Shown: positions 29,796 through 45,974, numbered from the stretch's first letter. The stretch: DNA of 55,642 nucleotides from Promethearchaeota archaeon (GCA_048938005.1 JBHLMQ010000016.1:1-55642), one strand, 5' to 3'. The notes: generated by a model from the sequence alone, not told the origin. Program-made: numbers and translations.

Positions 29796-31376
29796 ATGGT
29801 TGATAAAGTAATACCTTTTTTAATTAACATGGGTGAAGTTATTCCCGCCCGAAGCCAAGCCACTTTACTTAATGAATTAGCCATGGGTCTGATTGAATGT
29901 ATAGGAATTTATGGTAAAAATCTTAAAAAATTAGGCAAAATTTCCAAAATCACTACAGCATTTTGGCCAGTTCGCTTAATTCCCTTATCTGATACAAGAG
30001 CTTGCGTTTGTAGTTATCTATTAAATAAACAAGAAAAGTTAAGTGTAGGAAAATTTGCTCAGATGCCACCACGCCCTGAAAATATAATTAAAGGAGCAGA
30101 TCCAGTATCTTTTTTAAGTTCATTACAAAGTTATAATAACAGTTATCTAAAACGTAGCAAAAATTTTAAAAGAGGAACTGTAATTCAAGAAGCTTTATTT
30201 AATACAAGCGAAGTAGGATATTTCCAAAACTTTTTCCTTAATGAATATAATTTAAGCTCACATCAAACACCTTATTTCTTATTAGAGGGAGGACCCATTA
30301 CTAAAAGTGTTAACCAAATTAAAATAGCGTCAGATATACCTGAGTATGTTTCCCAGGCAGATGTGAAAATGCTTGATGCATTCGGAGACGCTATAATAAA
30401 GTTATGCGGGAGATGGATAGAAAAAGGAGGAAAGGAAGTAGATAAAATTAGAGATACAAAAGTAGATACAAGCGAAGAAGAGAAGCAATTAGCCATACTT
30501 AATAAGGAAATCCAGGAAGAAAAAGAGCGAGAAATAGAAAAATCTCCTGAGGAATTAGTAAAATTAGGAAAATATAAAATTAACGATAAAACTGGAGAAT
30601 TAACTAATAATCTTAGCTCAATTAAAAATAGTGTTGATAGTTTGAAAAATGCTATTAATAATCGTGATTTATTTTTAGTGGAAGAGGGTTTAAAGGATAT
30701 AAACGTGAAATATACCGAGTTAGGAAATTCTATTAGCAGATATAATAATGAAATTGCTCAATTAAGGAAAAACGTACAACGTGAAATCTCTGATCTTGAA
30801 AAAACAAAACAACAAAAACTTAGAGAGTTAGAGCGTAAAAAAGCTGAGGTGGAAAAACAAATTGAAGCAAAACACAGCGAACTTAGTAAAGATTTAACCA
30901 GTGCTGAAGATGTAGTTGCGCAAATAAAAACCGAAAAACAATCTTGTTTAGATAATATTGATTCTGTGAAGGATAAAGAAATGACTGATGTTCAAAACTT
31001 TTTTAATAATTATACTCTTGAAATAAAAACTCAAAATGTCGTAGTAGGTATACCTATTTATATATTCTTCTTTATTGATCCTAATACAAACAGAACCACG
31101 GAACGAGCACCTGTACTCCCAATATTGATTGATGGAGGCAAACCTGTAAGGACAAAAGTTAAGGCGAGCTTCAGACAAAAGTTAAGGGATTTAATGAATA
31201 AAGAAAATTCAATGATTGAGTTAGTAGAAACTCAAGGAGATAAAAATAATTTAATGGAAATAAAAAACTTAGATACACGACTTGAGGATGCTATCAATGA
31301 TTTACGAATTCGAAAAATTCTAAATAAAAGACAAGCTGAAACAGCAAAAGATATTATAACAAATTTAGTTTGGTAG
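29796..31376 (+). CDS. hypothetical protein with a long central coiled coil
   Basis: 526-aa ORF; E/K/Q-rich heptad region at about aa 210-400 flanked by globular segments. Confidence 0.8.
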   Translation: MVDKVIPFLINMGEVIPARSQATLLNELAMGLIECIGIYGKNLKKLGKISKITTAFWPVRLIPLSDTRACVCSYLLNKQEKLSVGKFAQMPPRPENIIKGADPVSFLSSLQSYNNSYLKRSKNFKRGTVIQEALFNTSEVGYFQNFFLNEYNLSSHQTPYFLLEGGPITKSVNQIKIASDIPEYVSQADVKMLDAFGDAIIKLCGRWIEKGGKEVDKIRDTKVDTSEEEKQLAILNKEIQEEKEREIEKSPEELVKLGKYKINDKTGELTNNLSSIKNSVDSLKNAINNRDLFLVEEGLKDINVKYTELGNSISRYNNEIAQLRKNVQREISDLEKTKQQKLRELERKKAEVEKQIEAKHSELSKDLTSAEDVVAQIKTEKQSCLDNIDSVKDKEMTDVQNFFNNYTLEIKTQNVVVGIPIYIFFFIDPNTNRTTERAPVLPILIDGGKPVRTKVKASFRQKLRDLMNKENSMIELVETQGDKNNLMEIKNLDTRLEDAINDLRIRKILNKRQAETAKDIITNLVW

Positions 31377-31416
31377 AAACAATTCTTTTTCGCTTTATTT
31401 ATTTATCTTATATCCT

Positions 31417-31590
31417 CTAATATTCAACATAATCCATTTTTTTTCCACAACATTCAGGAATAGGTTGATATCCACATTCATCTGAACAACAACAGAGCAA
31501 ATAATCATCTTTTACTATCATTGATTTATCACAACAAGTTGGGACTGATCTTTCAGAGCCACATATACTACATACTAGTTTATTTGACAT
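31417..31590 (-). CDS. 57-aa Cys-rich protein, tandem desulforedoxin-like metal-binding repeats
   Basis: CSICG..CCDKSM and CCCSDECG..CCGKKM; 10 Cys; ATG at 31590. Confidence 0.75.
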   Translation of the reverse strand: MSNKLVCSICGSERSVPTCCDKSMIVKDDYLLCCCSDECGYQPIPECCGKKMDYVEY

Positions 31591-31775
31591 TTTTTTCCAC
31601 ACCAAACGCTTTATTTTCCCTAAAGACACCAAAATATTATTAAAACAAAAATTAATCTCTTATGGAATATAATTAGGGCTACATTTTTGTTTTCACAGAA
31701 AAAGTAAAAACAACATTAAACTTTGTACTATTAAATTCTAAAAATATAATGCAATAATTCAATAATTATGCTTAA

Positions 31776-31815
31776 TAATTAATTGCTATATTATTAGAAA
31801 AAATGGAGAGAGAAA
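31776..31815 (+). repeat. 5' leader motif shared with the kamA upstream region (copy 1)
   Basis: Blocks TAATTAATTG, TAGAAAAAAT, GAGAGAGAAA in the same order as at 34990-35029. Confidence 0.55.
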
Positions 31816-33069
31816 TTGTCTAATAAACTAAATCTTAATAATTCATTTAACTTATATCAAGAGGCATTGGAATTAATTCCAGGAGCGATCTTGGGTATCC
31901 GCCGTCCATATAATTTCATTGAAGGAGAATATCCAATATTCTTTGAATCAGCAAAAGGTGGAAAAGTAATTGATGTAGATGGTAATGAATACATTGATAT
32001 GTTATGTGCTTATGGACCTATAATCATAGGACACAGAGAAGAAGAAATAGATAATGCAGTAATTGAACAAATTCGGAATAAGGGCTTTTGTATGTCTTTA
32101 ACTCAACAAGTACAAAACGAACTAGCCAAAAAACTAAGAGAATTGATACCTTGTTGTGAGAAGATGGTCTTAATGAAGATGGGAACTGATGCAACAATAG
32201 CAGCAATAAGAGTAGCAAGAGCATATACAAAAAAAATAAAAGTTCTCAGCTGTGGATATCATGGTTGGTATGATGCTTTCAGTGAGCTTCATGGAATCGA
32301 GGCAGGTATACCAAAGAAGTTATATGAAGATTTTTATGAATTTGAGTTTAATAATCTTGAAGAAGTTGAAAAATTATTTAAAAAAAATAAAGATGAAATT
32401 GCGGCTATTATAGTTAATCCAATCCATACACCAGGGGGTCGAGAAGTTGAGATGCCGAAACCAGGATTCTTAGAAGGTATTCGTGAGTTAGCAACCGTCA
32501 ATAATGCTCTATTAATATATGATGAAATAAGGACAGGATTTAGAGTAGATATGGGAGGTGCACAGAAAAAGTTTGGAGTTATTCCTGATCTTGCTGCATT
32601 CGGTAAAGCGATGGGGAATGGATATCCTATAAGCACTCTTGTAGGTAAAGCAGAATTCATGGATGTGTTAGTAGAAAAAGTGTTTTTAAGTTCAACTTTT
32701 TTCCCCAACAGCCTTGCTCAAACCGCATCCCTCAAAACAATTGAAATACTATTACGAGAAAAAGTTTTAAATACTATCCAGCAGAAAGGGAATCAGTTTG
32801 CAAAGCGAATTAAAGAGAGTATTGAAGATAGTGGTGTTCCATGTATTTATTCTGGAGACCCTTGGATGCCGTATATAACCTTTATTCCTGATAAAGACTT
32901 ACTATATAGGAAGCTTAGAGAAGAATTCTATAGGCAACTCATTCGACGAAAAGTTTTTCTTCAACCTTTCCATCATGGTTATATCTGTTATCGTCATTCA
33001 GAAGAAGAGATGGATTTTGCCGCAAATATGATAGATGAATCATTAAAAGAAACTAAAAAGTTATTATAA
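31816..33069 (+). CDS. kat: 3-aminobutyryl-CoA aminotransferase (Kat; class III, HemL-like)
   Basis: GIRRPYNF..GEYPIFF, KGFC.SLTQ, VFLSSTFFPNS, PWMPYITF, HHGYICYRH match my recollection of Cloacamonas acidaminovorans Kat; PLP Lys in FGKAM; heads a lysine fermentation operon lacking kal. Confidence 0.85.
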   Translation: MSNKLNLNNSFNLYQEALELIPGAILGIRRPYNFIEGEYPIFFESAKGGKVIDVDGNEYIDMLCAYGPIIIGHREEEIDNAVIEQIRNKGFCMSLTQQVQNELAKKLRELIPCCEKMVLMKMGTDATIAAIRVARAYTKKIKVLSCGYHGWYDAFSELHGIEAGIPKKLYEDFYEFEFNNLEEVEKLFKKNKDEIAAIIVNPIHTPGGREVEMPKPGFLEGIRELATVNNALLIYDEIRTGFRVDMGGAQKKFGVIPDLAAFGKAMGNGYPISTLVGKAEFMDVLVEKVFLSSTFFPNSLAQTASLKTIEILLREKVLNTIQQKGNQFAKRIKESIEDSGVPCIYSGDPWMPYITFIPDKDLLYRKLREEFYRQLIRRKVFLQPFHHGYICYRHSEEEMDFAANMIDESLKETKKLL

Positions 33070-33112
33070 TTCATTATTACTATAATTTTTAATATCCTCT
33101 TAAGTGAAATTA

Positions 33113-33946
33113 ATGGAAAAATTAATTATTACTGCGGCTATATGTGGAGCAGAAGTTACAAAAGAAAAAAATCCAAATATTCCTTATACAATAAAAGAAA
33201 TAGGAAAAGAAGCTGAATCTGCATATAAAGCGGGAGCTAGTGTTATCCATTTGCACGTTAGAGAAGATGATGGGACCCCAACTCAAAGTAGAGAAAGATT
33301 TAGAGCATGTATTGAAGAAATAAAAAGGAGATGTCCTGATGTAATTATAATGCCTTCAACGGGTGGAGCTGTAGGGATGACAAATGAAGAAAGGCTTCAG
33401 CCTATTTATTTAGAACCTTCTCCAGAAATGGCTACTCTCGATTGTGGAACAATGAATTTCGGTGGTGATGAAATATTTGTTAATACAGAGAATTCAATAA
33501 TTCATTTTGCTGAGGAAATGAACCGCCGTGGGATAAAATATGAATTGGAATGTTTTGATAAAGGAATGATAGATATGGCTCTAAGATTACATAATAAAGG
33601 ATATATTAAAGCTCCACTGCATTTTAATTTCATGCTGGGAGTAATTGGTGGAATTAATGCTTCAGAAAGAGATTTAGATTTTTTAGCAAGAAGTATCCCT
33701 GAAAACTCAACATTTTGTGTTGGTGCAATTGGAAAGCATGAATTTCCAATGGTTACTTCATCAATTAAAATGGGAGGTCATGCGAGAGTTGGATTTGAAG
33801 ATAATATCTATTTATCTAAAGGGATATTAGCTAAATCAAATGGAGAATTAGTAGAAAAAGTGGTTAGAATATCAAAGGAATTAGGAAGAGATATTGCTTC
33901 ACCTAATGATGCAAGAAAAATATTAGGATTAAAACTAAGGGATTAA
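33113..33946 (+). CDS. kce: 3-keto-5-aminohexanoate cleavage enzyme
   Basis: LIITAAICGAE, HLHVR, STGGAVGM, ATLDCGTMNFG, RVGFEDN; operon context; ATG at 33113 (GTG 33104 alternative). Confidence 0.93.
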   Translation: MEKLIITAAICGAEVTKEKNPNIPYTIKEIGKEAESAYKAGASVIHLHVREDDGTPTQSRERFRACIEEIKRRCPDVIIMPSTGGAVGMTNEERLQPIYLEPSPEMATLDCGTMNFGGDEIFVNTENSIIHFAEEMNRRGIKYELECFDKGMIDMALRLHNKGYIKAPLHFNFMLGVIGGINASERDLDFLARSIPENSTFCVGAIGKHEFPMVTSSIKMGGHARVGFEDNIYLSKGILAKSNGELVEKVVRISKELGRDIASPNDARKILGLKLRD

Positions 33947-33954
33947 GATGTGAT

Positions 33955-34992
33955 ATGAAAAAAGGAAATAAATATGGAACTCATAGAGTAATCGAGCCAA
34001 AAGGAGCTTTGCCCCAAACTGCAATAACGATTTCCAATGATATGACTATTTATGATAATGAAATCTTAATTGATGTAGGTTACTTAAATATTGATTCTGC
34101 TAGTTTTAATCAACTCAGAGAAGAAGCGCATAACGATTTGGAAAAAGTTAAGCGAAAGATAATAGAAATTGTAAATAATAGAGGAAAAATGCAGAATCCG
34201 GTGACTGGTTCTGGTGGAATGTTAATTGGAAACATTGAAAATATTGGAGATGCTTTAAAAGGCAAAATTGACTTAAACATTGGTGATAAAATTGCTACAC
34301 TTGTTTCACTTTCCTTAACACCGCTTAGGATAGATAAGATTCTAAATATTCACCCTGATATTGATAGGGTTGAAATTGAGGGCAAAGCAATCCTTTTTGA
34401 AAGTGGCATATATGCTAAAGTTCCTAAAGATATGAAGGATACCTTAGCATTAGCTATTCTTGACGTAGCGGGGGCTCCAGCTCAAGTAAAAAACTTGGTA
34501 AAATCCGGTAATACAGTACTGGTTTTAGGAGCTACAGGAAAATCAGGATTAATGTGTTCTCTAATGGCTAAAAAGATCGCTGGTAAGAAAGGAAGAATCA
34601 TTGGCCAAGCAAGAAATGAAAAAAGGGCAGAATTTCTTAAGAGAAGCGACTTCTGTGATGATATAATAATTGCTGATGTTTTAAATCCTATTGATGTTTT
34701 AGATAAAGTTCTCAAAGTGAATAATGGAAAAGAAGTAGATATCTCAATAAACTGTTTAAGTATACCTAACACAGAGATGTCCAGTATACTTCCAGTAAAA
34801 GATGAAGGAATCGTTTATTTCTTTTCGATGGCAACAAGTTTTGCAAAAGCAGCACTAGGAGCCGAAGGAATTGGAAAAGATGTTAAAATGCTGATCGGAT
34901 GCGGTTATGCTAAAAATCACGCACAAATCGCTTTAGACTTAGTGCGAGAATCAAATACATTACGAAAAATATTTGAAGAAAAATACGTTTAA
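33955..34992 (+). CDS. kdd: L-erythro-3,5-diaminohexanoate dehydrogenase
   Basis: YGTHRVIEPKG.LPQ, LNIDSASF, GKMQNPVTGSGGML, LDVAGAPAQ, FFSMATSF..AALGAEG. Confidence 0.95.
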   Translation: MKKGNKYGTHRVIEPKGALPQTAITISNDMTIYDNEILIDVGYLNIDSASFNQLREEAHNDLEKVKRKIIEIVNNRGKMQNPVTGSGGMLIGNIENIGDALKGKIDLNIGDKIATLVSLSLTPLRIDKILNIHPDIDRVEIEGKAILFESGIYAKVPKDMKDTLALAILDVAGAPAQVKNLVKSGNTVLVLGATGKSGLMCSLMAKKIAGKKGRIIGQARNEKRAEFLKRSDFCDDIIIADVLNPIDVLDKVLKVNNGKEVDISINCLSIPNTEMSSILPVKDEGIVYFFSMATSFAKAALGAEGIGKDVKMLIGCGYAKNHAQIALDLVRESNTLRKIFEEKYV

Positions 34993-35029
34993 TTAATTGT
35001 TGAGATAGAAAAAATATATGAGAGAGAAA
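34990..35029 (+). repeat. 5' leader motif shared with the kat upstream region (copy 2)
   Basis: Same three 10-mers as 31776-31815, immediately before the kamA ATG. Confidence 0.55.
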
Positions 35030-35031
35030 AT

Positions 35032-36270
35032 ATGAAGGTTAACAGACGAAAAGAATTATTTTCACATGTAAGTGATGAAGATTGGAACGATTGGCGTTGG
35101 CAAGTTAAAAATAGAATAACAAGTTTAGAAGAACTTAAAAAATATATCAAACTGACTAAAGATGAAGATGATCCTCGGATATTACAAGAGTACAGGATGG
35201 CAATTACACCATATTATTTATCCTTAATTGATCCTGATGATCCATATGATCCTATAAGAAAACAAGCAATTCCCACAATTCATGAATTAGAACGATATAG
35301 TAGTGACCTCGAAGATCCCCTTAGTGAGGATATTGATTCTCCTGTTCCAGGATTAACTCATCGTTATCCGGATAGAGTATTATTTTTAGTTACTGAAAAT
35401 TGTTCAATGTATTGTAGACATTGTACAAGAAGGAGATTTGCGGGTCACCATGATATGGCCCCTCCACAAGAACAAATAGACGCTTGTATAGAATATATAG
35501 AAAAAACGCCTGCGATTAGAGATGTACTTCTATCTGGTGGAGATGCATTATTAATATCTGATAAAAAATTAGAGGAGATTCTAACAAGATTAAAAGCAAT
35601 TCCTCATGTAGAGATCATACGTATAGGTTCTAGATCTCCGGTTACGAATCCTTTCCGAATCACTCCTGAGTTATGTGAAATGCTACAAAAATACCATCCT
35701 ATTTGGTTTAATACACATTTTAATCATGCTAATGAAATTACTGAAGATTCAACGAGAGCGTGTGAAATGCTTGCGGATGCTGGAATACCTCTTGGAAATC
35801 AATCTGTTTTACTAAGAGGAGTAAATGATTGTATTCATGTAATGAAAAAATTAGTACAAGAATTAGTAAGAATACGGGTAAGACCATATTATATTTACCA
35901 ATGTGATCTTTCTGTGGGACTAGCCCATTTTAGAACGAGTGTTGCTCAAGGCATTGAGATTATTGAAGGGCTAAGGGGTCATACATCTGGTCTATGTGTG
36001 CCAACATTTGTAGTAGATGCTCCCGGAGGAGGCGGAAAAATTCCGGTTATGCCAGATTATACAATTTCTCAAGGAAATAGGCGTGTTGTATTAAGGAATT
36101 TTGAGGGAGTTATAACAACTTATGAGGAACCAGATGATTATATACCAATGTGTCATTGTGAAGAATGTGAAAAACAAATTGGAGTTAGTGCTTTATTGAG
36201 TGGTCAAAAAATGACGATCGAACCGGAGGATCTTATAAGAAAGTTAAGAAGAAGAAAACTCACTAAATAA
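35032..36270 (+). CDS. kamA: lysine 2,3-aminomutase (radical SAM, PLP)
   Basis: WNDWRWQ, GLTHRYPDR, CSMYCRHCTRRR, YQCDL, DAPGGGGKIP, C-terminal CHCEEC. Confidence 0.97.
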   Translation: MKVNRRKELFSHVSDEDWNDWRWQVKNRITSLEELKKYIKLTKDEDDPRILQEYRMAITPYYLSLIDPDDPYDPIRKQAIPTIHELERYSSDLEDPLSEDIDSPVPGLTHRYPDRVLFLVTENCSMYCRHCTRRRFAGHHDMAPPQEQIDACIEYIEKTPAIRDVLLSGGDALLISDKKLEEILTRLKAIPHVEIIRIGSRSPVTNPFRITPELCEMLQKYHPIWFNTHFNHANEITEDSTRACEMLADAGIPLGNQSVLLRGVNDCIHVMKKLVQELVRIRVRPYYIYQCDLSVGLAHFRTSVAQGIEIIEGLRGHTSGLCVPTFVVDAPGGGGKIPVMPDYTISQGNRRVVLRNFEGVITTYEEPDDYIPMCHCEECEKQIGVSALLSGQKMTIEPEDLIRKLRRRKLTK

Positions 36271-36339
36271 TTCTAAAGTTTAAATAATTAAGATTTATTT
36301 CTGTTATTAACGAAAACTCCATTAGTTTTTGGCGATCAA

Positions 36340-37371
36340 ATGGATTTCATAACTTATTTTTTGAGTAAAATTGATAGATATCAAATAATCTCAATAATAG
36401 GGCTCGCTAAAAACGTCAGTAAGACTACTACATTAAACTACATAATAAAAAATATAAAAGATTATAAACTTGGTCTTACATCTATAGGAAGAGATGGAGA
36501 AAAGTACGATGCAATTACACGTTTACCAAAACCTCGCATATTTATTAAAAAAGGTACCATTGTAGCAACAGCGAGACAGAGTTTTGAAGAGAGTGAAGTC
36601 AAAATGGAAATATTAAAAACTACAAAATTTAATACTCCATTAGGTGAAATTTTGATATTAAAGGCATTGTGCGATGGATTTATTGAATTAGCAGGACCAT
36701 CAATAAATAAGTATTTACAAGAAATATGTTTAGAATTAAAAAATTTGGGATGTGATTTAATACTAATTGATGGTGCATTTGATAGGAGATCATATGCAAC
36801 TCCTATAATATCTGACGCTACAATTCTTTCAACAGGAGCTTCTGTGTCTGAAAATATGCAAAATGTGATTAATTTAACGGTTCATACCCTTGAATTATTA
36901 AATTTAGAATGTGAAATTAACCAAGAAATAGTAGAAATTGCTAATAATATTTTGGAAAAATCAAAAATTGGAATAATTGATGATAAAAATTCTATAAAAT
37001 TGTTAAACGTCTTAACTCCATTAGATGCTACTAAGGAAATTATTGATAATTTAGGTCAAAATTCAAAATATGTTGTAATAAATGGTGCTGTAACTGATCG
37101 ATTATTAGAAAATTTAATGAAATCTACAGAGAAGTATAAAGGAGTTACATTTTTAGTGGAAGATGCAACGAAACTATTTTTGAGTAAAAAAGTAAAGCAG
37201 AAATTCCAAAAAAAAGGTGGTTTTTTGAAAGTTTTAAATCCTATAAATATAATTGCTGTTACTATAAATCCAAATTCCCCATATGGATATGACTTTGATA
37301 AAAATAAATTTTTAAACATATTAAAAGAAAATCTTGATGTACCTGTTTATGATTTAGGAGTTAATGATTAA
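36340..37371 (+). CDS. kamB: lysine 5,6-aminomutase reactivation-associated protein KamB-like
   Basis: SIIGLAKN.SKTTTLN, GLTSIGRDGE, KP.I, TPLG, IDGA.DR, ILSTGAS; lies between kamA and kamD as in clostridial clusters. Confidence 0.75.
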   Translation: MDFITYFLSKIDRYQIISIIGLAKNVSKTTTLNYIIKNIKDYKLGLTSIGRDGEKYDAITRLPKPRIFIKKGTIVATARQSFEESEVKMEILKTTKFNTPLGEILILKALCDGFIELAGPSINKYLQEICLELKNLGCDLILIDGAFDRRSYATPIISDATILSTGASVSENMQNVINLTVHTLELLNLECEINQEIVEIANNILEKSKIGIIDDKNSIKLLNVLTPLDATKEIIDNLGQNSKYVVINGAVTDRLLENLMKSTEKYKGVTFLVEDATKLFLSKKVKQKFQKKGGFLKVLNPINIIAVTINPNSPYGYDFDKNKFLNILKENLDVPVYDLGVND

Positions 37372-37440
37372 TTTGGATAAACTTATTAAAAAATTATAAT
37401 AAATTTCATAATTGTGAAAAATATAAAGGAAGTGGGAAAT

Positions 37441-39012
37441 TTGCCAGAGAGTAAAATAAATTTGGATTTTAAAATAGTCGAAAAAGCAAGAGAAGCTGCA
37501 AAAAATATTGGAATAGAGACTCAAAAATTTATAGATCAACATACTACTACAACAATAGAAAGAACAGTTTGTAGATTACTTGGTATAGATGGTGTTGATG
37601 AGTTTGAAGTTCCTCTCGCTAATATTGTCGTAGATAATATAAACAAGGGAAAAGGTCTTGGATTCGGTGCTGCTATTTATATCGGTAATGCTATACTACA
37701 AACAAGTCTTGCACCTCAATTAATTGCAGAAAAAATCGCTATAAATGAATTAGATCTAACAAAATTGCCATTAAAAGATCTATCTGAAATCAAAGCAACT
37801 GTAAACATCATTGCTCAAGAGACCTTAGTAAAAATCTCTCAAAATAAGAAAAATAGAAACAAAATACTTGAAAAATATGGTGATAAGGAGGGCCCTTTAA
37901 TTTACGTCATCGTTGCTACAGGAAACATTTATGAAGATATTATACAAGCTCAAGCTGCAGCAAGACAAGGAGCAGATGTAATTGCAGTTATTAGATCTAC
38001 AGTACAAAGTTTACTCGATTACGTACCTTATGGTCCAACAACAGAAGGATTTGGTGGAACCTATGCTACTCAAGAAAATTTCCGTCTTATGAGAAAGGCT
38101 TTAGATGAAGTAAGTGAGGAATTAGGAAGATATATAAGACTGACTAATTATTGTTCTGGATTATGTATGCCAGAAATTGCTGCTATGGGTGCTTTTGAAA
38201 GGGTTGACATGATGTTGAATGATGCATTATATGGGATTTTATTCCGTGATATAAATATGAAAAGGACTATTATCGACCAGTATTTTTCAAGGATGATAAA
38301 TGCTTACGCGGGGGTAATTATAAATACTGGTGAAGATAACTACTTAACTACAGCCGATGCATATGAAGCAGCTCACACTGTTCTTGCTTCTGAATTTATT
38401 AATGAACAATTTGCATTACTTGCAGGATTAAAGGAAGAACAAATGGGCCTAGGTCATGCTTTTGAGATGAATCCAGAGTTGGAAAATGGATTTCTGTATG
38501 AACTTGCTCAAGCTCAAATGGCACGAGAGATATTTCCAAATGCTCCTTTAAAATATATGCCTCCTACGAAATATATGACTGGAAACATATTTAAAGGACA
38601 TGTTCAAGATGCTTTATTTAATATGATAACTGTAATAACAAATCAAAGAATTCATCTCCTTGGTATGTTGACAGAAGCTATTCATACTCCTTTCATGTCA
38701 GATAGAGCATTATCTATTGAAAATGCGCGATATATATTCAACAATATGAAGTCTATTGGTGAAGAAATAGTGTTCAAGAAAGGGGGATTAATGGAAAGAA
38801 GAGTTAGTGAAGTACTTAATAAAGCTTATGATTTATTAAAAGAAATAGAAAAAGAAGGATTATTTAAAACAATTGAAAAAGGGATCTTTGCTAATATTAA
38901 AAGAACAATAGACGGGGGTAAAGGATTAGATGGTGTATTTAAGAAAGAAAAAGAATATTTTAATCCCTTTATTGAACTTATGAATAAAGAATTAACAAAA
39001 GGAGGAAATTAA
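37441..39012 (+). CDS. kamD: D-lysine/beta-lysine 5,6-aminomutase alpha subunit
   Basis: ESK.NLD, HTT..ERTVCRLLGIDG, VATGNIYED, GGTYATQENF, NYCSGLCMPEIA, KYMPPTK; TTG 37441 preferred over GTG 37414. Confidence 0.96.
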   Translation: MPESKINLDFKIVEKAREAAKNIGIETQKFIDQHTTTTIERTVCRLLGIDGVDEFEVPLANIVVDNINKGKGLGFGAAIYIGNAILQTSLAPQLIAEKIAINELDLTKLPLKDLSEIKATVNIIAQETLVKISQNKKNRNKILEKYGDKEGPLIYVIVATGNIYEDIIQAQAAARQGADVIAVIRSTVQSLLDYVPYGPTTEGFGGTYATQENFRLMRKALDEVSEELGRYIRLTNYCSGLCMPEIAAMGAFERVDMMLNDALYGILFRDINMKRTIIDQYFSRMINAYAGVIINTGEDNYLTTADAYEAAHTVLASEFINEQFALLAGLKEEQMGLGHAFEMNPELENGFLYELAQAQMAREIFPNAPLKYMPPTKYMTGNIFKGHVQDALFNMITVITNQRIHLLGMLTEAIHTPFMSDRALSIENARYIFNNMKSIGEEIVFKKGGLMERRVSEVLNKAYDLLKEIEKEGLFKTIEKGIFANIKRTIDGGKGLDGVFKKEKEYFNPFIELMNKELTKGGN

Positions 39013-39013
39013 G

Positions 39014-39802
39014 ATGGGAGGAGGATTAAATTCAATGAAAAAGGAAGAATTTGATAAAAATCTTGATTTAACAAGAATTAAACCTTACGGAGATACAATT
39101 AATGACGGTAAGATACAATTAAGTTTTACCCTACCTGTAGAACATGATGAAAAAGCAATTGAAGCAGCAAAAGAGCTAACAGAAAAAATGGGACTAAAAG
39201 ATCCAGAAGTAGTATATCATACTTTATTAGACAAAGGATTCACCTATTTTGTAGTTTATGGAGAGTTAATTCATACAATCGATTATACTAAAATTCAAGT
39301 AGAATCTGTAGATGTAGAAGTAATGTCTAGAGACGAAATTAATGATTACATTAAAGAAAAGATTGGTCGTAAATTGGTTATACTTGGAGCGTCAACAGGA
39401 AGTGATGCTCACACTGTTGGAATAGATGCAATTATAAACATGAAAGGTTTTGCTGGTCATTATGGACTTGAACATTATGAAATGATAAAAGCCATAAACT
39501 TAGGCAGTCAAGTCTCAAATGAGGAATATGTTAAGCGAGCCATAGAACTTAAAGCTGATGTATTGCTTGTCTCCCAAACAGTTACACAAAAGGATATTCA
39601 TGTGAAAAACCTAACCCAATTAGTAGAATTATTGGAAGCCGAAGGAATAAGAGATCGTGTCATTTTAATTTGCGGTGGTACTAGAATAAGTAATGATTTA
39701 GCAAAAGAATTAGGTTATGATGCAGGTTTTGGACCAGGTACTTATGCTGAAATTGTGGCGTCTTTTGCTATTAAAGAGTTTGTAAGAAGAAAAGAAATAT
39801 GA
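39014..39802 (+). CDS. kamE: lysine 5,6-aminomutase beta subunit (AdoCbl-binding)
   Basis: KPYGDT.NDG.IQLSFTLP, DAHTVG (DxHxxG), NMKG (PLP Lys), VSQTVTQ, ELGYDAGFGPG. Confidence 0.96.
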   Translation: MGGGLNSMKKEEFDKNLDLTRIKPYGDTINDGKIQLSFTLPVEHDEKAIEAAKELTEKMGLKDPEVVYHTLLDKGFTYFVVYGELIHTIDYTKIQVESVDVEVMSRDEINDYIKEKIGRKLVILGASTGSDAHTVGIDAIINMKGFAGHYGLEHYEMIKAINLGSQVSNEEYVKRAIELKADVLLVSQTVTQKDIHVKNLTQLVELLEAEGIRDRVILICGGTRISNDLAKELGYDAGFGPGTYAEIVASFAIKEFVRRKEI

Positions 39803-39918
39803 TTGAAATAAGAATGATATTAATTAAAAGAAATTAAGTTTGGAATTAATTAGAACTTCAATAAAAATAAAAAAAATATGTAATTAATTTTCTAGATTAT
39901 ACTTTAAACGTATTGATT

Positions 39919-42459
39919 TTAATAGTACACAATTTCTACAGATTCTTTTACTTTCCAGATGTCCCAGAAATGATATCTCATAGGTTTATAGGTCCACGTT
40001 TCATAAAGGGCTACTTGATCATATGCATGAGGGCTTATAATTACATTCCCTTCATTATCAAGGGTTATAAAGCCACTCTGTCCAGGTGGAATTACATTAA
40101 ATGCATTTGGAGTAGGATTCCAGAATCTATGCCACCATTTCTGTTTAGGCATTTCTACGACGTGATTATATGTACCACGATTCATATAATGCATAACTGG
40201 GGGTGGTAATGCTCCAAGTGAACTGGGAACCCATATTCGAACTGGAGTTAACCATGTTTCCATATCTGCACCTAATTCATCCCTTAAAGCTATCACAGCC
40301 GCTTTTAGTGCACGATTTATTACTTCATCTCTATCTTCTCCATTAAGATAATCATAATTTAGCGGTAACGTTGATTCAGGACCATCGAAAACATGAATTA
40401 TCGTGCTTGGCCATACTGTCGCAAGTTCACGATGGATGGGACCTATTGGAGGATAAACTGGAAGATCATCACTAAAAACCTCATCAAATATTTTCTCATA
40501 CCACTCATCAAATATCGTTAAACCAGGATCATCATAAGTAGCATCCGCGCTAGGCCATTGTGGCACTTCATAATCATTATAATGAAAATTCCAGGCTTCT
40601 AAATAAGGTAAAGCGGCTTGAATGTCTGGATCACTTGATCCACTCGCAGCATCTATTAAATAACCTAGAAGATTCATTCCACCTAAGTGAGTATAACCAG
40701 CATCTTTGTTAATTTCAATCATATCATCAAGAGTAAAATGGTCTTTTGCGGCCAGGAGTTGCATTATTCTTTTTACACGATGTCCTTCTCCCCAACCAGC
40801 ATCTGATTCGCCGTATGGCCAATTAGTTATCGGCTTATTGTTCCAATTTGCAAGCCAGCCCTGTTTAGGGTTGATGCATATTGGCATTTCATCAGGACCA
40901 GTAACCCCTATCCATTCTTCTTCTCCTGTTCCCCATAGAGGGAATCTGTCATCAATAGGTCTTTCATATAGACCTGTGGTAGGTTTTATGGGCCAAAAAC
41001 CTGAATGCCAATACCCTATATTTCCTTTTTTATCAGCCCAATAGAAATTATGAGCTGCTTCTACGTGTTTACAAGCAAAATCAAAATCTTTAATATTCTT
41101 TGCTTGTTGGAAAAGCGACCACCCTTCTTCAGCTGCCAGTTCTCTTTTGTAGTAAGGAGTCTTCATCGTAAAGCAAAGATTATTATCAAGATCCCATCCA
41201 ATAATAGGTCCATGGATTGTTCTGTATACATTTCTTTCTACATAGTAGGATTTTTTAAAACCATAAAATTTTTCAGTTCTCACTTCCATATCTATAAATT
41301 CACCGTTGTACCAGTATTGATATTGATTAGCAGGATTTAAAACTTCAATATAAGTATCCATATTATCTGTGACCCCTGTAGTAGACGTCCATGCGCCATC
41401 TTTACTAGCACCTATTAAAATAGAAGGGGCATGAGGCATCATCATACCTACTGCATCAATTCCCGCTCCATGCAACCCTACTTCGAGGACAATTTGTGGA
41501 ATTGATTGTCCCATTTGTGGACCACCTTGTTCAAGAGCATTTCTAGTTACAGATTTTGTAGGGCTGACAACCCAAGCATTGCTTCCGAACTTTGTTGGTA
41601 AGCCCAAAGATTCGAACAATGCTGCTTGACCCATTTTGAGGTTATTATATTTATGATACACATCCATAAAATCACAGTTATACCCATCTATTATACTATC
41701 CTTCCATGAATTAATATATTGTACATCAGGCCAAGCACCTTCTTCTATAGGGATTGTAACTTCTGCTCCCGGATCATTTTGTGGGAAATGATCATTAAAT
41801 ATATCCCATCCAACATCATTTCCATAAGCTTCTTGAAGTGCCATTAGTGCTGTTGCATATGATAATTCATCACCACCACACCCTCCAAATCTCCAAGCCA
41901 TCATAACTACTATAGCGACAGAATCTTCAATAGTCCAAGGTTCAATGGGAAGAAGTCCTTCAGGAGTGATAACACCTGGAAGATATTCTATAGGAATAAG
42001 GGAGGGATCTCCCTCTTCAAATAATCTTCTATGAGCTTCATTAATGTATTCATTAATACCATTGGTATAAGCAATCATCATTTCCTTAAGCTTTGCTTTA
42101 GGATTAGAAGGCACCCAGCTTTCAAATATTTCCAATAGTTCTTCTTTACTATATGCCATACTTCTGATATAATAATCAGCATCTAGGCTTGCCCATGGTA
42201 GAATTTCAGCTAAACTGCCATATCCCTGTCTTCGATATAGATCCGCTTGCCAGAGCCTATCCTGAGCCATAGTATAACCACAACCAAATGCTAATCCTTC
42301 TTTTGTGTTTGCGAAAATATGAGGAACACCATAATTATCTCTTATTATAGTGATTCTTCTACGACCCCAACCCCAACCACATGCATTCGCGGGGATGATT
42401 GGAATAATTAGAAACGAAGTTATAATTACCAATAAACAAATCCATAATTTTTTTTTCAT
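39919..42459 (-). CDS. secreted penicillin G acylase-family Ntn hydrolase
   Basis: Signal peptide MKKKLWICLLVII...ANA; IIRDNYGVPHI, AQDRLWQ, autocleavage GSNAW, GPQ, RTIHGP, ANWNNKP, PPGQSG. Confidence 0.92.
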   Translation of the reverse strand: MKKKLWICLLVIITSFLIIPIIPANACGWGWGRRRITIIRDNYGVPHIFANTKEGLAFGCGYTMAQDRLWQADLYRRQGYGSLAEILPWASLDADYYIRSMAYSKEELLEIFESWVPSNPKAKLKEMMIAYTNGINEYINEAHRRLFEEGDPSLIPIEYLPGVITPEGLLPIEPWTIEDSVAIVVMMAWRFGGCGGDELSYATALMALQEAYGNDVGWDIFNDHFPQNDPGAEVTIPIEEGAWPDVQYINSWKDSIIDGYNCDFMDVYHKYNNLKMGQAALFESLGLPTKFGSNAWVVSPTKSVTRNALEQGGPQMGQSIPQIVLEVGLHGAGIDAVGMMMPHAPSILIGASKDGAWTSTTGVTDNMDTYIEVLNPANQYQYWYNGEFIDMEVRTEKFYGFKKSYYVERNVYRTIHGPIIGWDLDNNLCFTMKTPYYKRELAAEEGWSLFQQAKNIKDFDFACKHVEAAHNFYWADKKGNIGYWHSGFWPIKPTTGLYERPIDDRFPLWGTGEEEWIGVTGPDEMPICINPKQGWLANWNNKPITNWPYGESDAGWGEGHRVKRIMQLLAAKDHFTLDDMIEINKDAGYTHLGGMNLLGYLIDAASGSSDPDIQAALPYLEAWNFHYNDYEVPQWPSADATYDDPGLTIFDEWYEKIFDEVFSDDLPVYPPIGPIHRELATVWPSTIIHVFDGPESTLPLNYDYLNGEDRDEVINRALKAAVIALRDELGADMETWLTPVRIWVPSSLGALPPPVMHYMNRGTYNHVVEMPKQKWWHRFWNPTPNAFNVIPPGQSGFITLDNEGNVIISPHAYDQVALYETWTYKPMRYHFWDIWKVKESVEIVYY

Positions 42460-42683
42460 TTTTAATAGATCACTTCTTTTTCGGATTTACTTTTTTCTAT
42501 AAAATTTTTTGCAATTATTCTTTTTGGCACAAATATATATAAACTTTTTTATCGAAGCACTGAGTTTACATTTTTGACAATCCCATTTTCTTCCCAAATT
42601 TGAAAGTAGAACATCTAAACTTTTAATGAAAATGTTCATATAATTAAGTATTATCATTAGTAAAGAAATAAGTGTGAAATTAA

Positions 42684-43946
42684 ATGCCAACTTCAAAAGA
42701 ATTTATTGAAATGGATCTTAAATATTGTGCGCACAATTACCATCCAATCCCCGTTGTTATTTCACGTGCAGAAGGAGTTTGGGTTTATGATCCAGAAGGT
42801 AAGAAGTATCTTGATTGTTTATCAGCTTATTCAAGTCAAAATACTGGTCATTGTCATCCAGAAATTATTGCTTCTTTAAAGGAACAAGCAGATATTGTTA
42901 CACTTACTTCTCGAGCATTTCATAATGATATGATGGGTCCTTTTTTAAAAATGTTAGCAGACGTTGTAGGGCCACATATTAATGATCCCACAAATTCCGG
43001 TATAATGTCAATTCCTATGAATACGGGAACAGAAGCAATATCGACTGGTTTAAAAATGGCAAGAGCATGGGGGTATATAAAAAAGAAAATACCCAAAAAT
43101 GAAGCTAAAATCATAGTTTGCCGAAATAATTTTCATGGAAGAACCATTACCATTGTTGGTTTTAGTTCTGATATATCAGTGGTTCGCTATTATGGCAATT
43201 TTGGACCATATACCCCTGGTTTTATTATTATCCCTTATGGAGATGCTGAAGAATTAGAAAATGTTATTTTGGAAATTGGACCTGAAAAAGTAGCTGCTTT
43301 TTTGGTTGAGCCTATCCAAGGAGAAGCTGGCGTTAATGTCCCTCCAGAAGGATATTTAAGAAAAGCTCGAGAAATCTGTACAAAATATAATGTGTTGATG
43401 ATGTTAGATGAAATTCAAACTGGTTTTTGCAGAACGGGAGAGTTGTTTGCTTGTGATCATGAAAATGTAAAACCAGATATGCTACTATTAGGGAAAGCCC
43501 TTGGAGGCGGAGTGTATCCTGTGTCTGCCTGTGTAACCACAAGAGAAATTATAGGCCCAGATGTGATAATTCCTGGAAGTCATGGAAGCACTTTTGGAGG
43601 AAATCCTTTGGCTTGTGCTGTGGCAATGAAATCTATAGATATTCATCTACGTGAGAATCTTGCCGAGCGAGCAAAGGAGATGGGTGCTTACTTTATAAAA
43701 AGATTAAGAGAAATTGGTGAGAAAAGAACTAAAATTCCAATTAAAGATATAAGGGGGAAAGGGTTATTAATTGCTGTCGAATTTTCGGAGGATGCTAGAC
43801 AAATTGTTGAAGAACTCAAAGATAATGGAATATTAGCAAAAGATACACATTCTACAACTATTCGTTTTGCCCCACCCTTGGTTATTACGAAAGATGAGCT
43901 TGATTGGGCACTTGAAATCATAGAAAAAGTATTTGTAAAGCAATAA
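42684..43946 (+). CDS. rocD: ornithine--oxo-acid aminotransferase
   Basis: AHNYHP.PVV, LSAYS..N.GHCHP, LTSRAFHND, PMNTG.EA, FHGRT, EPIQGEAG, DEIQTG, LGKAL, HGSTFGGNPLAC. Confidence 0.93.
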   Translation: MPTSKEFIEMDLKYCAHNYHPIPVVISRAEGVWVYDPEGKKYLDCLSAYSSQNTGHCHPEIIASLKEQADIVTLTSRAFHNDMMGPFLKMLADVVGPHINDPTNSGIMSIPMNTGTEAISTGLKMARAWGYIKKKIPKNEAKIIVCRNNFHGRTITIVGFSSDISVVRYYGNFGPYTPGFIIIPYGDAEELENVILEIGPEKVAAFLVEPIQGEAGVNVPPEGYLRKAREICTKYNVLMMLDEIQTGFCRTGELFACDHENVKPDMLLLGKALGGGVYPVSACVTTREIIGPDVIIPGSHGSTFGGNPLACAVAMKSIDIHLRENLAERAKEMGAYFIKRLREIGEKRTKIPIKDIRGKGLLIAVEFSEDARQIVEELKDNGILAKDTHSTTIRFAPPLVITKDELDWALEIIEKVFVKQ

Positions 43947-43949
43947 AGA

Positions 43950-44867
43950 CTATTTATCTATAAAAAAATGAGTCCCAGCTCTTCCTTCTAATGCCTCTTC
44001 AATTTTTTCAATTGAAGTTATAATCGCTTTTTCTCCACCTTTTTCCATAAAATTTATTATTGCTTGAATTTTAGGGCCCATACTTCCAGCAGGAAATTGT
44101 CCTTCTTCCAAATATTTCTTTGCTTCTGCGATAGTAAGCTTATCTAAATCTTTTTGGTTAGGTGTACCATAATTAAGAGCAACTTTCTCAACATCAGTAG
44201 CAATGAGTAGTATATCCGCTCCTATTTGTTCAGCTAATTTAGAACTAGCAAGATCTTTATCTATTACAGCTTCAACACCATATAATCTTTTTGCTTCTTT
44301 TATAACGGGTATACCCCCTCCACCGCATGCAATTACAATCCAACTTTCTAATTCCATTAACTTCTTTATTTCACGCCATTGATAAATTTTTATTGGATTA
44401 GGAGAAGGAACAACTTGACGCCATCCTTTAGCTGTTTTAACCTGACCTGGTTTTGTGCGAACAGGATATGCAGGACCAATAGGTTTTGTGGGATTTTTAA
44501 ACGCAGGATCTTCAGCATCAACTTTCACATAGGTTAATACTGTTAAAAAAAGTTTTTCTTCATCGAGATTTATTTTCATAAGCTCCTCGTCTAATGTGCT
44601 CTCAATCATGAATCCAATCTGACCTTGGGTTTCTGCTACTAATATTTGTAACGGTCTTTTTGATACAAATTCAGTTGCTTCCTGTTGAAGTAAGAGATTA
44701 CCAACTTGTGGGCCATTACCATGTGTTATAATTATATTGTAGTTTTTTGCTAATTCTGCAATTTGGCTAATTGGAACTCTTAAATTCCGAAATTGTTCCT
44801 CAGTAGTGCCTTCTTCACCAAATTTTATTAAAGCATTTCCACCGAGTGCGACAATTAATGTTTTCAA
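43950..44867 (-). CDS. arcC: carbamate kinase
   Basis: ALGGNAL, THGNGPQVG, F.NPTKPIGP, R.VVPSP, GGGGIPV, EAVIDKD, GSMGPK. Confidence 0.96.
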   Translation of the reverse strand: MKTLIVALGGNALIKFGEEGTTEEQFRNLRVPISQIAELAKNYNIIITHGNGPQVGNLLLQQEATEFVSKRPLQILVAETQGQIGFMIESTLDEELMKINLDEEKLFLTVLTYVKVDAEDPAFKNPTKPIGPAYPVRTKPGQVKTAKGWRQVVPSPNPIKIYQWREIKKLMELESWIVIACGGGGIPVIKEAKRLYGVEAVIDKDLASSKLAEQIGADILLIATDVEKVALNYGTPNQKDLDKLTIAEAKKYLEEGQFPAGSMGPKIQAIINFMEKGGEKAIITSIEKIEEALEGRAGTHFFIDK

Positions 44868-44933
44868 AAAAAATTCTCCAATATATATTTAATTTCCACA
44901 AATGGAAAAAATAAATATTATTTAACTTATTAT

Positions 44934-45866
44934 TTAAAATTTATCTCGTAAAAAGAGCATAATAGCTTTTTGGATATGTAATCTATTTTCAGCTTGGTCA
45001 AATACAATTGATTGAGGACCGTCAATAACCTTTGCCGTTTGTTCATAATCCCTCATAGCTGGCAAGCAATTCATAAACACAGCATTGGGTTTTGCTGTTA
45101 ACATAATTGATTTTGTCACTTGAAATGGCATAAAAACTTTTTTTCTTTCTTCTTCTTTGTCTGCTGGAATACCATAACTCATCCAACTATCAGTATAAAT
45201 AACATCAGCGTCTCTAGCAGCTCCCATTGCTTCATGAACTACTCTTACATCAGCTCCAGTTTCTTTAGAAAGTTCTGATACCTCATTCAAAACGATTTTC
45301 TCCGGAGAATATTGTGGATCAGCTGGGCAAGCTACATCCATTCTCCAGCCAAACATAGCACACATCCTCATTAAATCATATGTTACATTATTGTAAGCAT
45401 CCCCAAAATATGATAACTTTAAGTTATCAAGCTTACCTTTTTTCTCTTTTATAGTCAAAAAATCACCTAGGATTTGACATGGGTGTGCGAAATCATCCAA
45501 CATATTTATCACCGGGACATCGGCATATTTAGCGAGATCCCAAATATCTTGCCTTTTAAAAACCCTGGCAGCGATGATATTAACAAATCTAGAAGCAACT
45601 TTCGCTGTATCCGAAATGTTTTCCTTTTTCCCTAAGGGTGAATCTTTTATTGAGTAAAAAATTGCATGCCCTCCTAATTGTTGCATGCCAGTCTCAAAAG
45701 ATATTCGAGTTCTTAAGGAAGGCTTTTCAAATAGCATTAAGAGGGTTTCTCCTTCTAAAAAAGAACTAAATTTTTTAGGATTTTTCTTTAACTCAATTGC
45801 TTTATTAATAACCCTCTCGCATTCAGCCTTTGAAAAATCTGAGACTTTTAATAGATGTCTAACCAT
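44934..45866 (-). CDS. arcB: ornithine carbamoyltransferase (Giardia/metamonad-like signature)
   Basis: KPSLRTR, HPCQ, NNVTYDLMR, YTDSWMSY, FMNCLPA.R..EQT..VIDGP.S, QAENRLH. Confidence 0.93.
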   Translation of the reverse strand: MVRHLLKVSDFSKAECERVINKAIELKKNPKKFSSFLEGETLLMLFEKPSLRTRISFETGMQQLGGHAIFYSIKDSPLGKKENISDTAKVASRFVNIIAARVFKRQDIWDLAKYADVPVINMLDDFAHPCQILGDFLTIKEKKGKLDNLKLSYFGDAYNNVTYDLMRMCAMFGWRMDVACPADPQYSPEKIVLNEVSELSKETGADVRVVHEAMGAARDADVIYTDSWMSYGIPADKEEERKKVFMPFQVTKSIMLTAKPNAVFMNCLPAMRDYEQTAKVIDGPQSIVFDQAENRLHIQKAIMLFLRDKF

Positions 45867-45974
45867 TTTCAGTATTTTAGAATTTTAGATAATAATTAAG
45901 TATTAAAAAGAAAGATTAGATATAAATCAAAATATATGAATTACAACAGCTTATATTATCCAATTTCAGAAGAT

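Follow-up and report, generated by a model that had tools for sequence, protein, structure and literature searches.

The enzyme 3-aminobutyryl-CoA aminotransferase (Kat) and the variant route of lysine fermentation in which it acts were defined by Perret et al. (2011, PMC3149608), where the two assayed Kat enzymes are given as about 65% identical to each other. In related clostridial operons the gene order is kal-kce-kdd-kamA-kamB-kamC-kamD-kamE. For the cultured Asgard archaeon MK-D1, Supplementary Table 4 of Imachi et al. (2020, PMC7015854) has an entry ‘Lysine degradation’ that comprises kamA, kamD, kamE, kdd, kce and kal and gives their expression values, and the legend of figure 2 names acetoacetate and butyryl-CoA; the main text makes no mention of lysine. 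Bacterial-type lysine fermentation in an Asgard archaeon, in the Kal form, is thus already in print. Here we analyse a seven-gene block, kat-kce-kdd-kamA-kamB-kamD-kamE, in a 55,642-nucleotide stretch of DNA from Promethearchaeota archaeon (GCA_048938005.1 JBHLMQ010000016.1:1-55642), hereafter the window, for which an initial annotation had named Clostridia, Fusobacteria and Cloacimonadota as the known holders of the route; the MK-D1 table shows that it is not new to archaea.

The cluster is a real, intact and long-resident Kat-type operon in a Loki-type Asgard archaeon. We put at roughly 80% the probability that it is, as its sequence predicts, a working operon for Kat-variant, B12- and radical S-adenosylmethionine (SAM)-dependent lysine fermentation on an archaeal chromosome, with a core of Clostridia type and a foreign kat. 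The chemistry is known; new details are the mosaic origin and the repeated alternation of kat and kal, and also of note are the apparent loss of KamC in one family and a Kat form that is both commoner and mis-annotated. A search of the full-text literature, in which most subscription journals are not included, found no paper on Kat or this operon in Asgard archaea, and within the archaeal literature searched a putative kat or kal appeared in Thaumarchaeota papers only.

The seven genes are as follows (aa, amino acids; PLP, pyridoxal phosphate):

kat, 31816..33069, + strand, 417 aa, TTG start: putative 3-aminobutyryl-CoA aminotransferase, a HemL-like class-III PLP enzyme
kce, 33104..33946, + strand, GTG start: Kce (NF052387, BKACE)
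kdd, 33955..34992, + strand, 345 aa: L-erythro-3,5-diaminohexanoate dehydrogenase (NF052381)
kamA, 35032..36270, + strand, 412 aa: radical-SAM/PLP lysine 2,3-aminomutase (TIGR03820)
kamB, 36340..37371, + strand, 343 aa: lysine 5,6-aminomutase reactivase subunit, by its NCBIfam name (NF052386)
kamD, 37414..39012, + strand, GTG start: alpha subunit of lysine 5,6-aminomutase (NF052384, Lys-AminoMut_A)
kamE, 39014..39802, + strand: beta subunit of lysine 5,6-aminomutase (NF052385)

All seven open reading frames (ORFs) lie on the same strand, with gaps from kat to kamE of 34, 8, 39, 69, 42 and 1 bases. Gene identities were judged by NCBIfam equivalog models with their curated cut-offs, and six of the seven proteins, Kce, Kdd, KamA, KamB, KamD and KamE, score above them. 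Kce gave 433.5 bits on NF052387 (cut-off 382) and 350 bits on Pfam BKACE, and matches PDB 2Y7D over its full length (251.5 bits), the motifs HLHVRE at residues 49-54 and GFEDN at 230-234 aligning with that structure. Kdd scored 269 bits (NF052381, cut-off 200) and 382.5 bits against PDB 7DL3 across residues 3-344. KamA, at 609.6 bits on TIGR03820 (cut-off 525.4), matches the fermentative Clostridium enzyme of PDB 2A5H with 673.9 bits across residues 3-406 and is about 77% identical to it by a hand count from the alignment, in which the radical-SAM motif CSMYCRHC lies at 124-131 and GGGGK at 332-336. KamD reached 920.4 bits on NF052384 (cut-off 600) and 901 bits on Pfam Lys-AminoMut_A, and KamE 399.4 bits on NF052385 (cut-off 280) and 404.4 bits against PDB 8T0V, with which its B12 motif DAHTVG (DxHxxG) at 131-136 and NMKG, with the conserved lysine, at 142-145 are aligned. 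KamB scored 406.9 bits on NF052386 (cut-off 210), with no match to a Pfam family and no relative among solved structures. The individual motif residues are presumed to be catalytic. The contiguous order and intact motifs described in the initial annotation were thus recovered at these positions; its kamB label is right as to the gene, to which the NCBIfam name adds the role of a reactivase subunit whose ATPase partner, KamC, is missing.

The product of the first gene is a class-III aminotransferase (Pfam Aminotran_3, PF00202, 191.8 bits) whose FGKA at 262-265 aligns with the GK of the HemL structure 3BS8; we take its lysine to be the one that forms the Schiff base with PLP. Its best NCBIfam matches are HemL models, all below cut-off (NF000818, 279.5 against 398; the HemL equivalog TIGR00713, 268.2 against 527.3), whereas the true HemL proteins of two Kat-bearing bacteria gave 593-620 bits on the HemL model; its nearest solved structures are also HemL (about 210 bits). 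Over its full length the protein is 60% identical (252/417, 3 gaps) to UniRef100_B0VH76, the characterised Kat of Cloacimonas acidaminovorans strain Evry, which UniRef names 3-aminobutyryl-CoA aminotransferase. A hidden Markov model built from 32 Cloacimonadota and Bacteroidota Kat homologues scored the window protein at 686 bits and its fellow family members at 532-768 bits, while true HemL reached 194-228 bits and the two other HemL-like paralogues of the window's genome 150-169 bits. In a 94-row Kat tree, the Kat family is split from HemL and the paralogues by a branch of 3.25 with 99% support. Relatives in the protein collection at 72-92% identity come from Promethearchaeota and other Asgard-labelled metagenome-assembled genomes (MAGs), and those at 58-67% from Cloacimonadota, Bacteroidales, Elusimicrobiota, Bdellovibrionota and Desulfobacterales; the GenBank record of one 86%-identical protein is already labelled 3-aminobutyryl-CoA aminotransferase.

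No HemL above cut-off was found in the window's genome. The two paralogues, class-III aminotransferases at C11:153105-154178 and C44:21460-22737, reach 302.6 and 269.2 bits with the HemL model, also below cut-off, and their sequences identify them as neither Kat nor true HemL. Likewise, the genome matches NF052389 through its Kce half only, with nothing to the Kal half, and tblastn with two archaeal Kal proteins gave a best E of 0.12. The kat gene lies directly 5' of kce, in the slot where relatives carry kal. Kat (EC 2.6.1.111) is defined by a class-III PLP fold, by grouping with assayed Kat, by the kal position in a kal-free genome and, further, by transamination of 3-aminobutyryl-CoA with 2-oxoglutarate, acting on CoA esters only; every one of these features that sequence can test is found in the predicted product of 31816-33069. 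The proposal in the initial annotation that Kat here substitutes for Kal is upheld by its placement in the Kat clade, by the 60% identity to B0VH76 and by the lack of Kal in a 95.3%-complete genome, and the grouping with HemL that would have spoken against it was not seen: the enzyme groups with Kat and fails the HemL models.

The window is the whole 55.6-kb contig of a 3.72-Mb MAG, and the host, as had been proposed, is archaeal, a Loki-type member of the Asgard archaea (Promethearchaeota). No archaeal 16S gene was found in the genome, and its taxonomy is based on the labels of related records and on the grouping of the genome collection. Ras-family small GTPases are eukaryote-like signature genes typical of Asgard archaea, and one lies on the same contig at 10845-11459 (- strand; PF00071, 168.6 bits), where the neighbours include three aldehyde:ferredoxin oxidoreductases and other fermentative genes. 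Thirty-five archaeal MAG loci, with Kat 72-91% identical to that of the window, share its flanks (als, orf135, sdr, orf526) and its gene order. In 33 of them kce follows kat on the same strand, the other two stopping at a contig edge; all seven genes stand in the window's order in 18, the remainder being cut by locus or contig ends, and for one of the 35 the record is a closed chromosome of 3.34 Mb. The operon has a GC content of 32.2% (genome, 29.8%) and a tetranucleotide distance at the 74th percentile of 415 8-kb genome chunks. Several studies' metagenome runs, from sediment and mangrove, contain a near-identical stretch, and both operon ends are spanned by contigs from two other studies' runs (X1, 30610-32064 and 39392-40968; X6, 38385-40354). 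Because of the shared archaeal loci, the chromosome record, the ordinary composition and the bridging contigs, we reject mis-assembly and mis-binning, against which the initial annotation had wanted the contig checked. One X1 contig of low depth (2.4, where the main form has about 12) connects 31019 with 39860 through 33 other letters, without the end of the 526-aa gene orf526 and without the entire operon; this form may come from a related strain that has no such operon, or the contig may be chimeric.

The distribution of the operon was surveyed across Asgard genomes, as the initial annotation had suggested, with KamD as the marker. Of 400 genomes of the phylum, 85 were found to have KamD, and every one of these belongs to either of two families in the window's order: 74 of 134 genomes of the window's family (f1) plus the window's own (G000), 10 of 14 in a second family (f3), 0 of 251 others and 0 of 14 controls. 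It is thus present in 85 of 154 genomes of the order against 0 of 246 phylum genomes sampled outside it. Kat (E<=1e-100) was found in 62 of the 154, and Kal in at least 20 (by the Kal half of NF052389, 190-204 bits), or at least 21 with genome G183, found by tblastn, so that Kat is the commoner form in the order (62 against at least 21 genomes). In three genomes (G277:C155:10340-11557, G145:C78 and G147:C5) the Kal and Kce matches share one open frame of 406-423 aa, resembling the bifunctional Kal/Kce described by NF052389; in G145 and G147 a TAG stop lies inside the Kal match.

For bacterial relatives, species-representative genomes were scanned by pattern, and the sample is the 80 best loci from each such scan. 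The KamD scan returned mainly Clostridia at 62-78% identity (Caloramator australicus 78%, Alkalithermobacter 74-76%, Clostridium species 73-76%), and a comparison of KamD with 50%-identity representatives gave 1343 matches in clusters too coarse to name a donor. A core tree of concatenated Kce, Kdd, KamA, KamD and KamE (70 operons, 1785 columns, quick search) placed all 28 archaeal operons in one clade with a Shimodaira-Hasegawa-like approximate likelihood ratio test (SH-aLRT) value of 100. This clade is nested in a Clostridiaceae/Peptostreptococcales/Fusobacteriota group (93), with Bacteroidales Kat-type operons far outside, and a careful 35-row core tree supported it at 100/99. The Kal tree (45 rows, 125 columns) is too short to resolve, with Kal falling in the same clostridial group. 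Kat is incongruent with this pattern: in the 94-row tree, 21 archaeal Kat proteins including that of the window form one clade (99), which sits among Elusimicrobiota, Bacteroidota, Bdellovibrionota and Cloacimonadota and away from Bacillota Kat-like genes. The phylogenies for donor and congruence proposed in the initial annotation therefore place the core and Kal with Clostridia and Fusobacteria and Kat elsewhere. Its single operon-scale transfer is not upheld, Kat sitting in a different bacterial clade from the core. Eight records labelled Thor-, Odin-, Hod- or Hermodarchaeota (L006, L011, L012, L020, L023, L025, L034 and L035) nest in the Loki-type clade, and the labels or binning of these MAGs may be unreliable.

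We infer two events: an ancestor of the order took up one Clostridia-type Kal operon, and kat was acquired afterwards and independently. The transfer is old, since the composition is typical of the genome and the cluster is common to two families of the order. The ancestor would have taken in kal-kce-kdd-kamA-kamB-kamC-kamD-kamE; kat would have been added afterwards, and kamC lost in the window's family.

Within the order, kat and kal alternate. The exact kat slot, with the same upstream genes, is occupied by kal in two genomes of the window's genus (G183, G192) and four of its family (G277, G246, G247, G244). In the 35-row tree five Kal-type rows are scattered among Kat-type rows, which needs five changes in 200 of 200 bootstrap trees, and at least five Kat/Kal switches are counted among the 28 archaeal operons. 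In one case a Kat-type operon is sister to a Kal-type one, their core end branches measuring only 0.034 and 0.038 substitutions per site. Supported conflicts between the Kat and core trees were also observed: locus L033 groups with L032 and L034 for Kat, and the Kat of f3 genome G132 nests inside the f1 Kat clade. In genome G138 (L284/L285, C1:3057000-3088000), kal, kat and kce lie within about 7 kb on one strand, an arrangement that could be an intermediate or ancestral state of the alternation. The pattern fits either repeated cassette exchange within the order or a two-gene ancestor followed by differential loss.

Lysine 5,6-aminomutase is a suicide-prone enzyme. Every full bacterial operon examined has the ATPase gene kamC (NF052383) placed between kamB and kamD; the cluster has no such gene. 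The only match to the KamC model in the window's genome reached 211 bits (cut-off 300) and belongs to a 965-aa protein on contig C63, a canonical MutS that has domains I-V, and tblastn of the genome with three KamC proteins found that MutS gene only. The KamB/KamC reactivase pair is thus incomplete in this genome, with KamB present and KamC not. In family f3, kamC is present in genomes G143, G138, G135 and G142 (loci L282, L284, L286 and L289); none of the 24 f1-family rows in the core tree, the window among them, has it, and neither does the f3 genome G132. The gene content of these genomes indicates that KamC is lost in the window's family. The reactivase role itself derives from NCBIfam naming, and our literature search on KamB and KamC returned nothing on a reactivase.

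The proposed pathway is modelled on characterised bacterial enzymes for its first five steps and on genes elsewhere in the genome for the last two. L-lysine would be converted to beta-lysine by KamA, and beta-lysine to 3,5-diaminohexanoate by KamDE with adenosylcobalamin and PLP. Kdd would oxidise and deaminate 3,5-diaminohexanoate to 3-keto-5-aminohexanoate, which Kce, using acetyl-CoA, would cleave, yielding acetoacetate plus 3-aminobutyryl-CoA; from the latter and 2-oxoglutarate, Kat would form acetoacetyl-CoA and glutamate. A glutamate dehydrogenase may then restore 2-oxoglutarate, while a CoA-transferase would activate acetoacetate and a thiolase would yield acetyl-CoA, with ATP probably gained through ADP-forming acyl-CoA synthetases, not Pta/Ack. 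According to the legend of figure 5 in Perret et al. (2011, PMC3149608), a complete Kat route includes a CoA-transferase, a thiolase, a glutamate dehydrogenase and an ATP-forming step. Each is represented at family level in the window's genome, with putative substrate specificities: three thiolases above cut-off, four family-I CoA-transferase matches (two adjacent on contig C80), three glutamate dehydrogenases and three ATP-grasp_5 (ADP-forming) acyl-CoA synthetase genes. Three [NiFe] hydrogenase large-subunit genes are also present. By our own bookkeeping, an all-acetate outcome would give, for each lysine, about 2 acetyl-CoA and 1 acetate, along with two pairs of reducing equivalents; this is one acetyl-CoA more than the Kal route, and would suit a syntroph. 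The reducing equivalents must exit as H2 or formate, or reduce part of the acetoacetyl-CoA to butyrate.

The products could instead be the classical mixture of acetate and butyrate, with acetoacetyl-CoA passing through 3-hydroxybutyryl-CoA and crotonyl-CoA to butyryl-CoA; redox would then be balanced internally, so that Kat would impose no partner dependence on lysine fermentation. We regard this as quite possible, if on the doubtful side. The same branch was proposed for Kat-route organisms by Perret et al. (2011, section 8, PMC3149608), who allow that such organisms may still make butyrate. The window's genome holds 11 Acyl-CoA_dh_1 matches, one of them beside the C80 CoA-transferase pair, and the window itself has two 3-hydroxyacyl-CoA dehydrogenase genes (16588-17403 and 21912-22865). 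The acyl-CoA dehydrogenase matches are, however, at family level, with putative butyryl-CoA specificity, and the hydrogenases and ADP-forming acyl-CoA synthetases leave an H2-releasing acetate route equally open. Since candidate butyrate-branch genes are present, an acetate-only fermentation is not established, and the initial annotation went too far in placing acetate before butyrate. A non-catabolic role, in which KamA makes beta-lysine as a compatible solute in the manner of methanogen AblA, appears very improbable: the model that KamA passes is indeed named lys_2_3_AblA (TIGR03820), but the gene is flanked by those for Kdd, Kce and KamDE in the order of a bacterial fermentation operon, the cluster holds no acetyltransferase gene, and the closeness to the Clostridium enzyme of 2A5H is to a fermentative one.

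It is improbable, too, that the first gene is not kat and encodes a HemL-like enzyme of other specificity, for example for another beta-aminoacyl-CoA or for glutamate-1-semialdehyde, travelling with the operon. Such an enzyme would account for the HemL models being the best NCBIfam matches, with no NCBIfam Kat model matched, and two further HemL-like paralogues occur in the genome; moreover, 60% identity is the level at which Perret et al. (2011, PMC3149608) doubted the function of a homologue in NaphS2, given there as an organism without the lysine pathway genes. It would leave unexplained why HemL models give only about half their cut-offs when true HemL reaches 593-620 bits, why the Kat model separates the protein so widely from HemL and the paralogues (at most 228 bits), and why it sits in the Kat clade and in the kal slot beside kce of a kal-free genome. 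Bacterial DNA mis-binned or chimerically assembled into an archaeal MAG is an extremely improbable source of the contig. The enzymes are 70-78% identical to clostridial ones and the MAG has an estimated contamination of 7.2%, yet the Ras-family GTPase and genes common to Asgard MAGs share the contig, the same flanks recur in the 35 archaeal loci, one of them on a chromosome, and genome-typical composition is joined by independent contigs across both junctions. In addition to the identity level and the contamination, several points count against a working, transferred Kat operon. The absence of KamC leaves reactivation of the aminomutase without explanation, and a PduO-type cobalamin adenosyltransferase was not found in the genome, other adenosyltransferase types not having been searched for. 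Two archaeal Kat proteins, those of G135 and G138, are placed with weak support away from the main archaeal Kat clade; the closest donors may lie outside the limited bacterial sample; and the direction of transfer depends on distribution and on midpoint or outgroup rooting, and is not proven. No RNA run was among the 21 runs holding the stretch, which is uninformative either way. A working Kat-variant operon with a Clostridia-type core remains the reading that we prefer.

Among known prokaryotes, the Asgard archaea are those most closely related to eukaryotes, and an amino-acid-fermenting, partner-dependent Asgard lifestyle is central to current models of eukaryote origin. The preferred reading would mean that one Asgard catabolic route was imported from Clostridia-like bacteria into a single order, and that the imported operon later gained an aminotransferase of other bacterial source, a concrete and datable case of bacterial metabolism entering the lineage. 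More speculatively, kat and kal may be interchangeable cassettes whose slot sets the redox mode, a genetic switch for dependence on a syntrophic partner; at present we consider this unlikely. If true, Kal would give a self-balanced acetate and butyrate fermentation, and Kat extra acetyl-CoA and ATP together with reducing equivalents that need an H2- or formate-consuming partner. Sister operons that differ in kat or kal would then reflect co-occurring Loki-type archaea exchanging or losing cassettes, and the loss of KamC would point to a distinct archaeal upkeep of the B12 enzyme. Automatic annotation names the archaeal Kat a HemL or aspartate aminotransferase family protein; with Kat mis-annotated in this way and commoner, metabolic reconstructions that look for kal only score the pathway as incomplete. 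The initial annotation as a whole was sound as to genes and host, and overstated novelty, simplified the transfer and named products that are unproven.

Two further ORFs lie upstream of the operon:

orf526, 29796..31376, + strand, 526 aa: protein with a long central coiled coil, native archaeal flank
small Cys-rich ORF, 31420..31590, - strand, 57 aa with 12 cysteines: divergent from the operon, membership of the system uncertain

The orf526 gene is found upstream of kat in 26 of the 35 archaeal loci and upstream of kal in G183, G277, G246 and G244. Neither Pfam nor NCBIfam has a family that matches it, the ESM-Atlas clusters nearest to it consist of archaeal hypothetical proteins (Promethearchaeota, Thermoproteota, Bathyarchaeota), and it is probably not part of the pathway. 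The 57-aa ORF was recovered by tblastn at 52-89% identity in 45 further locus rows, some on overlapping contigs; most rows have it immediately upstream of kat or kal, whereas in L003, L004, L017 and L033 it is up to about 4 kb off, and it adjoins the Kal-type operons of G183, G246 and G244 as well. A 45%-identical paralogue is present on contig C11 of the same genome, and no Pfam family was matched at E<=1. Downstream, 39919-49226 holds a penicillin-amidase family gene (-), an ornithine aminotransferase (+; TIGR01885, 520 bits, cut-off 378.4), a carbamate-kinase-like gene, an ornithine carbamoyltransferase and two FAD/FeS (flavin adenine dinucleotide/iron-sulphur) oxidoreductases; the contig reads as an island of amino-acid catabolism. 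Scans of the window for tRNA genes and Rfam families gave no matches. A sigma-70 promoter scan gave 43 sites where 46.1 were expected from shuffles, and a terminator scan 2 where 3.1 were expected; both scans are uninformative for an archaeon.

Extra genes are inserted inside the operon in many relatives, and the 35 archaeal loci (L001-L035) show 57 gaps of >350 bases in all. With names taken from reading the translations alone, the inserts include a SAM-methyltransferase-like ORF between kce and kdd in 18 of the 35 and a family-III CoA-transferase-like ORF, oriented with the operon, between kat and kce in 6 of the 35. A 2-hydroxyacid-dehydrogenase-like ORF, an acyltransferase-like membrane protein, a ZIP-like transporter and a DtxR-like regulator were also seen. 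The operon of the window is a compact form without any of these inserts.

Set beside the described systems, the window shares with the Kat clusters of Perret et al. (2011, PMC3149608), one on a Bacteroidetes contig from a digester and one in ‘Candidatus Cloacimonas acidaminovorans’ as presented there, a HemL-like aminotransferase at the kal position. The order kat-kce-kdd-kamA-kamB-...-kamD-kamE is the same in the Bacteroidales loci L050, L052, L056, L058, L067, L069 and L071. The window differs from bacterial Kat clusters of this type in its archaeal host, in having no kamC and in having no atoD, atoA or thiolase genes flanking the cluster, and its core enzymes stand nearer to those of Kal-type operons in Clostridia (70-78% identity for kce, kamA, kamD and kamE) than to the Bacteroidales ones (63-67%).

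The classical Kal-type operons of Caloramator australicus (L214), Alkalithermobacter (L229/L233) and Fusobacterium (L274), the nearest bacterial relatives of the core in the sample, have the same kce-kdd-kamA-kamB-kamD-kamE order, with identities between the window and L214 of 74% for Kce, 69% for Kdd, 70% for KamA, 78% for KamD and 71% for KamE; they carry kal and kamC, whereas the window carries kat and no kamC. MK-D1 (‘Ca. Prometheoarchaeum syntrophicum’; Imachi et al., 2020, PMC7015854) is likewise an Asgard host with the same pathway genes, which the supplementary table lists with kal and with no entry named ‘kat’. In that list kamD is separated from kamA by a MutS2-like and a hypothetical gene, and kce and kal are about ten genes off; the window, in contrast, has no MutS-like gene and holds kat with the other six genes in a single compact block.

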